From the NCBI GenBank assembly GCA_021780355.1, contig JAJXYX010000052.1, positions 1 to 57,480 on the forward strand: DNA of 57,480 nt, written 5' to 3'. A program made the translations under genes and the position numbers. This DNA is from a bacterium (GTDB lineage Bacteria; Chlamydiota; Chlamydiia; Chlamydiales; SM23-39). The notes under the pieces are model-generated. The model was given only the letters and a program-made list of their open reading frames with translations, had not been told where the DNA came from and searched no databases. Positions 29,882-32,691 of the stretch are shown here, piece by piece; within the stretch, counting starts at the first letter, position 1; every line of letters begins with the position of its first letter.

Positions 29882-30502
29882 TTATCCAATAAAAAATTTG
29901 TCTACAAGAGACTCTAGAATTTTTCCCTCAGGGGTTAAATTGTCCTTATCATCAAGTTTGGCTATTTGTAATTGTTCGCCACATAAATCTCGAATTTCTT
30001 TGGCTTGCTCTTCTGGTAAGTTGATGAAATGAGCATCGCTGATTTGCTGAGCAGAAAGAAGGGCTTCTCTATGTTTTTTTTGTATGAAGGTTGCTTTGCA
30101 GAGATAAATATACTCTTGTTTGCTCAGTCTTATTTTTAGTGTTCTCGGTTTGTGATAACCAAATGATTGTAATACTTCTTTTGCCATTAGGGTAATCTTA
30201 GTCCATTCCGGCGTATCAATAAACAGCTGAGGAAGATCGTTTTCTTCCCAAAAATTTTTGAATTCTTCATGAAATTTTTTTAGATAGGTTAATTGAAAAT
30301 CTGAAATCTCATATTTTTCACTCTCTGCAAAAATAGAATCTGCTGATGATGAATAACGACATACGGCTTCATCAAAATTGTCGCACTCAGGCCCTTCGCC
30401 GCGAATCCATATTCTTTTCTGATATTCTTTATCAGAGATATAAAATAAATCTCTTAGAAATTCTTTTAATATATAACGTCGTTCTTCTTTTGTAAGCTCC
30501 AT
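29882..30502 (-). CDS. Putative immunity protein, probably two fused domains
   Basis: Starts 2 nt after the toxin-like ORF; ISDKEYQKRIWI...DNFDEAV resembles SCO4402/CdiI-like immunity proteins; distinct C-terminal ~85 aa. Confidence 0.6.
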   Translation of the reverse strand: MELTKEERRYILKEFLRDLFYISDKEYQKRIWIRGEGPECDNFDEAVCRYSSSADSIFAESEKYEISDFQLTYLKKFHEEFKNFWEENDLPQLFIDTPEWTKITLMAKEVLQSFGYHKPRTLKIRLSKQEYIYLCKATFIQKKHREALLSAQQISDAHFINLPEEQAKEIRDLCGEQLQIAKLDDKDNLTPEGKILESLVDKFFIG

Positions 30503-30504
30503 AA

Positions 30505-32691
30505 CTAATCCTTGTATATAAATTCAGATAATGGAATATGTGCTTCTGGGGCATCCGAGGAAACTACTTTATCGAATTTATCGAAAGTCTCTCCTCTCTT
30601 TGTTTGAATCACATAAGGTGCCTGTTGGCATGGATTGGGATTATGGGCTGCTCCAGGCATTATTCTAATCGAAGTTTTGGGCTGGATTGGGTCAAAATAT
30701 TCCATCCCGGCACCTTTATCCGTAATTCTCACCAAATAATTGTCTGGAATCCCAGGCAGCTTTTGAAAAGTAGGTATGCCATGTTGATGGATTAGATTTC
30801 TAATCTCTATTTCCGGCATAACTTGCTTTGTATACGGCTTCAGTTCTTTCTTGGCAGTCGTAAATAAATCATAAGACGCCTACATTTCTCGGTTTCCAGC
30901 AAAAAAATCTAGGCCTTTACCAATTACCTGTTCTAATTCACCGGACTGTTTAAGTCCTGCTATTTCTCTGGCGCTAAGTCCAAGGTCTTCTCCAGCTGCA
31001 AGCGCTTTCCTAGTTGAAATCATTGTTTCGCTAACATTCATCCCCGCCGAGCTTCCTTCAGCAGCGGCTTCAAGGATGAGTAATTTTTCGGCAGATTGCA
31101 GGTTTTTGCAAATTGCCCCTAATTCTTTAGCAGCCACTCCGCCTTTTGCCACGGCTTTTGCAGCAGCTCCTGGAAGAAGGATATCCGCTCCATGTTTACC
31201 AAATGCGTAGCCGGAAAGTTCTCCTTTTTCTTTTGCTGATAATGTGTCCCATTCAGAAACCAATTGATGAAGCTCTGGAGAAAGGGTCTCTCCGATCAGG
31301 CTCCATTCTCCTGATTTTGCAAGACCGCTTAACGTTGAGATCGATTCGTATACTTTTTCGCCTGTTTGAATGGGATGACGTGCGAGATCAGTTACAAATA
31401 AGAGAATCCCTTCTCCTGAATCGTAAATCCCTTTTGGCAGTCCTTGGGCAAACCCAACTGAGAAATCAGTGACAGAAAAGGGTTCCTTTGCTTGAGAAAC
31501 ATATGTGTTATAGTCAGCAATGCTTTCTTCGTAATGTCCAAGCTCAAAGTGGGCAAGGCCTCTTCCTAAGTAAGAACTTGAGTTGCTTGGATCGTTTTGG
31601 ATCGCGTTGCCAAAATCTTGAACGGCTTGAGAGTAACATCCCGATGAAAGAGCCCAATCGCCTCGAGCTTGATAGGTCAATGTGTTTAAATCGGCGTTAT
31701 TGCCTATACATGCTGGTGAGTAATTGGTGGAGAATGCGGAATCTATCGCAGTATGTGGAGATGGTCCTAAGCCGCTAGCCCATTTTGGCGGCGGATAGTA
31801 CGAATGATTTCCAAGATTTTGTAGTTCGTAACCTAAAAAAGGATTCTCAGCGGCTTGGGTAGCGAGGGTGTCGACTGTTTTATGAGCGAAAAGAGAGCCC
31901 ACGATCCGTCCATTTTCTTCCATGGAGATGCCATTAGTCTCTGATATGGCGCCTAGTTGCTGCTGCGCAACATTTTCTTTAAATGCTGACATTTGTTCTT
32001 GTAGAGAGGTGGTTAAAGGCTTTGCTTCAGATAGATCTGAGAGGCTGCTGTGATCATTTTGATACGGGTGGCTTGATTCAGAAGCTAAAGCGCCGCCTGA
32101 AGCTGCTATTCCTCCTGCAGCAGCTCCTGCTGCAGATGATGAGAGGACTACTGCTGTGACAATGACTACTGTTACAGCAACTACAATAATGACACCAATG
32201 ATGATCTCTTTTTTGTGTTCTTTAACGAATTTTCTTGTTTGGTCCCATTGTTTCTTGAACCAGCTCTTACAAAGAACGGCGTTTAGCGATCCGTCTCTAA
32301 AAATTGCCGGTTTAGCAATGTATGGAATGTTTGAATCGATCCAGTAGGCATATTGATTATCGTTTTTTTCTAAAAGAGTTGCGATGGATGTTGCTAGATC
32401 GACTTTTTCATCTTCTGTAGCCCCTTCCATGGCAAGAAATGAGATCAGGTGATTTACTTGATCTAACTGCTCTAGTGAACATCTCTCTTCAAAAGAGTCC
32501 GACTCAATGAGTGCGAGGAGATCCATGGCCTCATCGTACGAAAAATTTCGGGGGTCTGGGATATCAAAAGACCTCTGAATCGGAACCACAGGCAGGTCGT
32601 TGTTTGGATAAATATTTAAGGTCGGAGTGGTGACAAGAAGAGACGTTAAAACTGCTTTAGAAAAAAACTTCATTACATGGCTCCTGTACAA
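30505..32691 (-). pseudogene. TPR-containing polymorphic-toxin-like protein interrupted by one in-frame TAG (30880-30882)
   Basis: ORFs 30880..32691 and 30505..30819 share a frame and the 60-nt gap is open (ASYDLFTTAKKELKPYTKQV). Architecture: signal-like N-terminus, TM, TPRs, Gly/Ala-rich linker, C-terminal RIMPG...AHIPL domain. Confidence 0.65.

Follow-up and report, generated by a model that had tools for sequence, protein, structure and literature searches.

What does a single amber codon, placed in a long chlamydial reading frame between a carrier-like protein and a toxin-like end, leave of the gene, and to what kind of system did this gene belong? From our analysis of the window (the whole stretch of DNA considered here, 57,480 nucleotides) we give a probability of about 0.8 to its being a broken copy of a Chlamydiales polymorphic toxin, an exported and membrane-anchored carrier for interbacterial conflict. 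In this system a conserved N-terminal part with a predicted export signal would bear an exchangeable C-terminal tip, a predicted nuclease, and the product of the adjacent gene is predicted to neutralise that tip. Intact members would be exported by Sec, held at a membrane by a transmembrane (TM) segment, and would bring the tip into bacteria nearby, which are likely other chlamydiae encountered as extracellular bodies or inside the same host cell. For the family as a whole, the export route, the delivery, the toxic action and the target are our inferences. To our knowledge, the environmental chlamydiae, which are obligate intracellular bacteria, have long been read as having no interbacterial weapons.

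The interrupted frame and the gene behind it

The toxin frame and its neighbour consist of the following parts.

32691..30505, minus strand: full toxin frame, 728 codons and a final stop, with one internal TAG
30883..32673, minus strand: conserved N-terminal part, 597 aa from the likely ATG, with a signal-peptide-like start, helical N-domain, TM segment, TPRs and linker
Residues 158-198 (counted from TTG 32691), minus strand: hydrophobic TM stretch running into an Ala/Gly/Ser run, peak hydropathy 3.28
Residues ~339-402, minus strand: two TPR motifs, from a domain search of the N-terminal part
Residues ~405-515, minus strand: conserved pre-toxin linker within the N-terminal part
30505..30879, minus strand: class A tip, 124 aa, PT7-like predicted fold, predicted nuclease
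30152..30502, minus strand: ImmA domain, residues 1-117 of the downstream gene, acidic, predicted helical bundle, distantly DUF7945/SCO4402-like
29882..30142, minus strand: ImmC domain, residues 121-206, fused in frame; elsewhere a standalone gene of ~90 aa directly behind class C tips

The single frame of about 728 codons with one TAG, described in an earlier sequence-only reading of this DNA, was recovered at exactly 728 codons, and all motifs quoted there are present in its translation. The TAG is codon 604 (30880-30882, minus strand) and divides the scaffold from the tip. The part before it counts 603 codons from TTG 32691 or 597 from ATG 32673, and the latter, six codons into the frame, is the likelier start, because the public record of the N-terminal part (P0005) has 597 aa and the homologues begin there. 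From the TAG to the final stop the tip takes 124 codons, and the ATG of a 206-aa gene follows at 30502, 2 nt past the toxin-frame stop, just as had been noted. The description of this gene as acidic and immunity-like holds for residues 1-117 (pI 4.75), but residues 121-206 form a second, separate domain. The term TPR delivery scaffold is an overstatement for a protein with two TPR motifs, which in some members of the family are weak or absent, and with a putative delivery role. Promoter and terminator scans gave only chance-level signals.

A check of the stop at 30880-30882 had been advised, and in the contigs of three runs (X1-X3; one study, possibly the source of the window DNA, and contigs lose rare variants) TAG was the only reading found there, which leaves an assembly error unsupported by these contigs. 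Recoding of TAG was ruled out as unlikely, because TAG terminates 176 of the 879 open frames of at least 300 aa in the genome and no CTA anticodon occurs among the tRNAs found in it. Agreement of the contigs, together with the normal use of TAG as a stop, makes the stop most likely genuine.

The carrier family and its exchangeable tips

Matches to the N-terminal part (E <=1e-20), some of them partial and often in several copies per genome, were found in 111 of 401 Chlamydiota genomes, with a patchy distribution by family (f1 32/68, f8 18/35, f9 42/90; three others 0/23, 0/30 and 0/46). Such a spread suggests that conflict among kin is common in several chlamydial families. A locus identical to that of the window is present in a 'Chlamydiales bacterium' (L002) and in G196 (L007), a genome of the same family as the window genome. 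On plasmid pSn of Simkania negevensis Z lies a member whose frame crosses the record origin and is open to either side of it (205 + 524 codons; L080:1-1818 and L082:1-615); it bears tip B, followed by the downstream gene of that class, and this intact copy in a cultured organism makes co-infection exclusion directly testable. The pSn member is missing from the plasmid gene table used here.

By sequence inspection, homologues share the signal-like start and the TM segment; reading the family proteins by eye showed no lipobox, and in the flanks of 35 loci (1.5-4 kb) no conserved gene for transport or anchoring turned up upstream. Two proteins (P0091 and P0092) have the N-domain and TM segment but no TPR-linker part, and their tip is an LHH-like HNH domain. 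The tip A profile returned 1126 cluster representatives at E <=0.001; the best 150 of these often keep the TPR-linker part but differ in their N-termini, which makes the carrier itself modular.

The sequence-only reading suggested collecting homologues and asking whether their C-termini vary. From 95 homologues we excluded the window record (P0005) and seven TPR-only matches (P0093-P0099) and counted the remaining 87, of which 81 end in one of eight unrelated tips (A 46, B 9, C 8, D 8, E 6, G 2, F 1, H 1); the other six, partial or truncated, were given no class. Tip A, with 46 of the 87, predominates. No BLAST match between tips of different classes was better than E 0.1. When mapped on a quick tree built from 79 TPR-linker segments, with 47 of 75 inner branches lacking resolution, the tip classes need 26 changes, the minimum being 5, and shuffled labels need 30.9 on average, with 0 of 200 shuffles as low as 26, which indicates some clustering by class. 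Sister pairs with unlike tips include P0023 (A) with P0024 (B) at support 99, and P0013 (D) with P0073 (C) at support 95; the scaffold segment most identical to that of the window (84%) bears tip B. By these comparisons, tips have been swapped repeatedly on near-identical scaffolds.

The same tips circulate on quite different carriers. A Leptospira RHS locus has tip A together with an ImmA-like gene (42% identity; hhalign 96%), and there an Ntox10 match to the RHS protein spans residues 4-96, outside the tip A region; an Ochrobactrum haemagglutinin locus has the same combination. HINT proteins of Leptospira carry tip B, an RHS array of Protochlamydia has tip D, and a minor capsid protein of MuF type bears tip C; a search for tip A in phages gave no match. 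The class E tip matches PDB 6D7Y (E 5e-23), a CdiA tRNase (PMC9086364), and the class F tip is Ntox50 (E 2e-23). By Pfam, class G is weakly LHH and class C weakly DUF4258, no informative match being obtained for B, D and H; nor did B, C and D match any solved structure. The domains of CdiA-CT of Pseudomonas aeruginosa PABL017 (6D7Y) and of Ntox50 thus belong to members of classes E and F and not to the window tip, and no CdiA/CdiB machinery stands in the chlamydial loci. With swapped tips, matching next genes (see below) and tips common to RHS, CdiA-like, HINT and MuF toxins, the proposed polymorphic toxin layout is well sustained.

This layout is MafB-like and known. MafB of Neisseria has a signal peptide, a lineage-specific N-domain, a variable tip and an immunity gene (PMC3482391), and the chlamydial family resembles it in its Sec-type start, conserved lineage-restricted N-terminal part, exchangeable nuclease-type tips, adjacent immunity-like gene and downstream orphan cassettes. 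Unlike MafB, its proteins have no Pfam match to MafB-N or PT-TG (PF14449), the linker gives only a weak Atlas lead of 0.85, no conserved mafA-like gene lies upstream in the 35 loci with their short flanks, the carrier has a TM/Ala-Gly segment and TPR motifs, and the host phylum is Chlamydiota. PT-TG was not found in the genome either, and the UniRef name 'Pre-toxin TG domain' of one homologue (P0271) was not reproduced by the Pfam scan. Neither Pfam nor NCBIfam has a named carrier family to which the N-terminal part could be matched, and the family looks undescribed: no account of the chlamydial scaffold was found in the open literature searched (subscription journals lie mostly outside this search, and the large supplement of PMC3482391 could list a member), and PMC13483458 has no mention of 'Chlamyd' or 'TPR'.

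Tip A and its predicted immunity genes

The structure model of tip A has a pLDDT of 93, and by profile, Foldseek and VIA alike its best match is PT7 of Bacillus cereus (PDB 8OWU). The fold search proposed for the tip thus returned a PT7-like match, a modest one, with a Foldseek E of 0.022, a profile E of 0.0034, ~19% identity and Z 7.3 (under Z 8; rmsd 2.7, 73 aligned), the next match standing at Z 3.2. PT7 is described as a DNase that depends on metal and poisons both bacteria and yeast (bioRxiv 10.1101/2021.10.19.465003). At the columns of D37 and H47, catalytic residues tested in PT7 (numbered here by where the mutation appears to lie in the PDB chain), all 22 tip A rows have other invariant residues, and the Ochrobactrum relative retains PT7-like ones. 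Because these columns differ, tip A lies, by its aligned catalytic residues, outside the PT7 family; the modelled structural link between the two is modest, and the mode of action of tip A is likely that of a nuclease toxin. Pfam and NCBIfam have no family for it. We also tried Ntox30 (PF15532), described by the motif RxH, R, THIP (PMC3482391), and rejected it: none of the 22 tip A rows gives a match at E <=10, the likeness being limited to a HIP-like ending and a 13% share of an Atlas cluster.

The sequence-only reading advised asking also whether the downstream genes vary with the tips. The 35 loci L001-L035 represent 31 distinct ones, four of which end before the tip or the next gene, and in all 27 informative loci the next gene fits the tip class (A 20, B 3, D 2, C 1, E 1, with B, D and E judged by eye), a count which we give as a pattern with no test statistic because kin loci are not independent. 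In the loci compared, each tip class thereby travels together with a downstream gene of its own. At least eight loci (L017, L019, L023, L027, L028, L030, L032 and L033) have additional tip fragments and immunity-like genes further downstream.

Binding of the tip by the downstream protein, on which the earlier interpretation depended, is favoured by the complex model: tip A with ImmA scored 0.85, the best of three controls 0.01, and the mark used is attained by 116 of 157 solved pairs and by 2 of 215 mismatched pairs. The runs share at least 87% of contacts, with a partner pLDDT of at least 91, and the modelled interface takes in the invariant R72, M74, Q85 and H114, so placed that ImmA would cover the conserved pocket of tip A. 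An acidic partner predicted over a conserved pocket is a likeness to PT7 and its immunity protein PIM7, as is the C-terminal AHIP motif common to PT7 and tip A; the carriers differ, that of PT7 being LXG and that of tip A chlamydial, and ImmA has no match to PIM7. Sequence and fold searches with ImmA returned nothing informative, only generic four-helix bundles with Z up to 8.0. Weak matches to PF25656 (DUF7945) appear in 18 of 21 ImmA rows, below the curated cut-off (best E 1e-4), and NF047838 gives 21 bits against a cut-off of 50. The Ochrobactrum counterpart of ImmA passes the DUF7945/SCO4402 cut-off, and a distant relation is therefore likely; the family also suggests a function for DUF7945.

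The second domain of the downstream gene has a history of its own. Among 28 other ImmC matches listed the frames are 49-132 aa long (mostly ~90), and at the window 213 aa. In 16 of the 27 other distinct ImmC loci tip C stands directly before ImmC, in four tip A and ImmA are followed by a separate ImmC, and in seven there is neither. DNA likeness to a tip C-ImmC locus starts right at the ImmC start, overlapping the end of tip C, and the only ImmC match in the window genome has no tip C adjacent. It would be logical to suggest that a tip A-ImmA pair displaced a tip C module, whose old immunity domain was kept and then fused; the fused ImmC is thus probably a remnant of the displaced module and would likely protect against class C toxins. 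Retention of immunity after effector displacement has been proposed for Vibrio arrays (PMC5361080), which is the nearest likeness, and two immunity-type domains in one polypeptide recall polyimmunity proteins (PMC3482391). Unlike those, ImmA and ImmC stand outside the named Imm families, and the window fusion lies directly behind a toxin gene. ImmA fusions recur in the family. The downstream gene of L009 has ImmA in frame with a stretch of ~190 aa, hydrolase-like by eye.

Chlamydiota live inside eukaryotic cells, so the tip could instead be a nucleic-acid-damaging effector aimed at the eukaryotic host, or at co-resident viruses, with the adjacent gene protecting the producer before export. PT7, which has the nearest solved fold, kills yeast as well (bioRxiv 10.1101/2021.10.19.465003), and for intracellular bacteria Zhang 2012 (PMC3482391) takes most toxins to be host-directed and toxin-immunity pairs to be relatively rare. 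The same source, however, ties host-directed toxins to missing immunity genes. The tips are, moreover, shared with interbacterial RHS and CdiA systems, and the genome keeps extra immunity-like genes and fused immunity domains against tips that it lacks, as would suit attack by kin. The Amoebophilus proteins APD1/APD2 (PMC3482391), which resemble our family as endosymbiont proteins with a signal peptide, a conserved lineage-specific N-domain and variable C-termini, are described as lipoproteins and predicted to be host-directed; the chlamydial tips each have a matched downstream gene. We hold a host-directed role for improbable.

Preferring interbacterial conflict, we may go a step further and suggest that environmental chlamydiae possess a widespread lineage-specific contact weapon, with a new Sec-exported membrane-anchored carrier, at least eight tips with cognate immunity, spread on plasmids and islands and deciding the winner of co-infection, tip A being a PT7-fold nuclease with a new active site. 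To this proposal in its full extent we give somewhat less than an even chance. Tips A, B, D and H are candidate new toxin domains and ImmA-E candidate immunity families; a single broken copy has little weight, and it is the whole family that is of interest.

Probable decay and insertion of the window copy

The window tip is off-consensus at 4 of 37 conserved columns, against a median of 1 and a maximum of 3 in 45 homologues, and the N-terminal part at only 0 of 27 and 1 of 60. The numbers are small but agree with decay following the stop, and such decay of the tip is apparently under way. Among about 150 matches listed, seven further ones have internal stops, including a same-genus copy (L015), and at least one of these stops lies at a different place from the window TAG, so broken copies of the scaffold gene are, on these alignments, ordinary. 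With the tip severed from its export scaffold, the window copy probably delivers nothing.

The same genome has an intact class A paralogue on contig C101 (L001:764-3630, G000:C101), whose next gene, of 246 aa, encodes a tandem of two ImmA-like domains. The downstream gene of the window would likely still protect against class A toxins, that of the C101 paralogue included. The idea of a disarmed toxin with retained immunity therefore stands as far as the facts go, the tip being cut off by the TAG and ImmA kept, but the retention is more simply explained by the intact toxin gene of the same class on C101. This paralogue, the fusion of two immunity-like domains and the flanking direct repeat are new beyond that first interpretation.

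The stop could conceivably be functional, the N-terminal part being kept as a membrane protein, or a 104-aa ORF (ATG 30819) being made separately and assembling with it. The N-terminal part shows no excess loss of conserved residues, and the whole PT7-like core lies within the 104-aa ORF; but scaffold and tip A share one frame in 45 homologues, the window tip has the most deviations of the set compared, and the other internal stops, with at least one elsewhere, look like ordinary decay. We find a functional stop hardly credible, and continue to read the gene as broken.

The surroundings of the locus are as follows.

28285-28369: tRNA-Leu, beside the CAAX protease gene
28481-29176, plus strand: CAAX/Rce1-like protease gene, whose 3' end is the left repeat
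29092..29177, plus strand: left direct-repeat copy, the 3' end of the CAAX/Rce1-like protease gene
29380..29676, plus strand: short HTH_29/HTH_23 ORF (domain match) inside the repeat-flanked segment
32781..32853, plus strand: right, degenerate repeat copy, with 12-nt and 1-nt deletions
39976-40143, 47183-47350, 47918-48086, and partial 29806-29876: copies of a palindromic repeat

The locus lies within a 3.6-kb segment between direct repeats of about 80-85 nt formed by the end of the CAAX gene, and the HTH_29/HTH_23 ORF is likely a transposase remnant. In two genomes of the same genus (G185 and G340) the genes up to CAAX are conserved and different genes follow, the G340 contig ending 1.2 kb later. 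Repeat and site comparison fit an insertion with target duplication. The stretch 28285-29176, with the tRNA-Leu and CAAX gene, is a variable site, with different followers in each of four relatives compared.

Such a setting brings to mind a module for abortive defence or a selfish toxin-antitoxin pair, at work within the producer and serving plasmid or island maintenance. One intact member is carried by the conjugative plasmid pSn, the window copy sits in a repeat-flanked segment by tRNA-Leu that is absent at this site in the relatives compared, and the 35 loci examined yielded no delivery partner within their flanks. The conserved signal-like start and TM segment nevertheless speak against action inside the cell, and so do the conserved N-terminal part of ~600 aa, the serial exchange of tips and the orphan cassettes, none of which we know from classical toxin-antitoxin modules. 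An in-cell module is, in our opinion, very improbable, and an exported toxin of interbacterial conflict, here broken, remains our preferred reading.

Other mobile or conflict-related elements are present in the same genome. A pair of AbiEii nucleotidyltransferase and AbiEi antitoxin genes, a type IV toxin-antitoxin system, adjoins low-GC DNA in the window (37919-39399, minus strand), and a separate open frame of 1781 aa with RHS repeats lies on another contig (G000:C43:80443-82614, minus strand). The palindromic dispersed repeat listed above, ~130-170 nt long with a long predicted hairpin, occurs at ~166 loci of the genome and may be MITE- or REP-like; a similar copy is present in G196.
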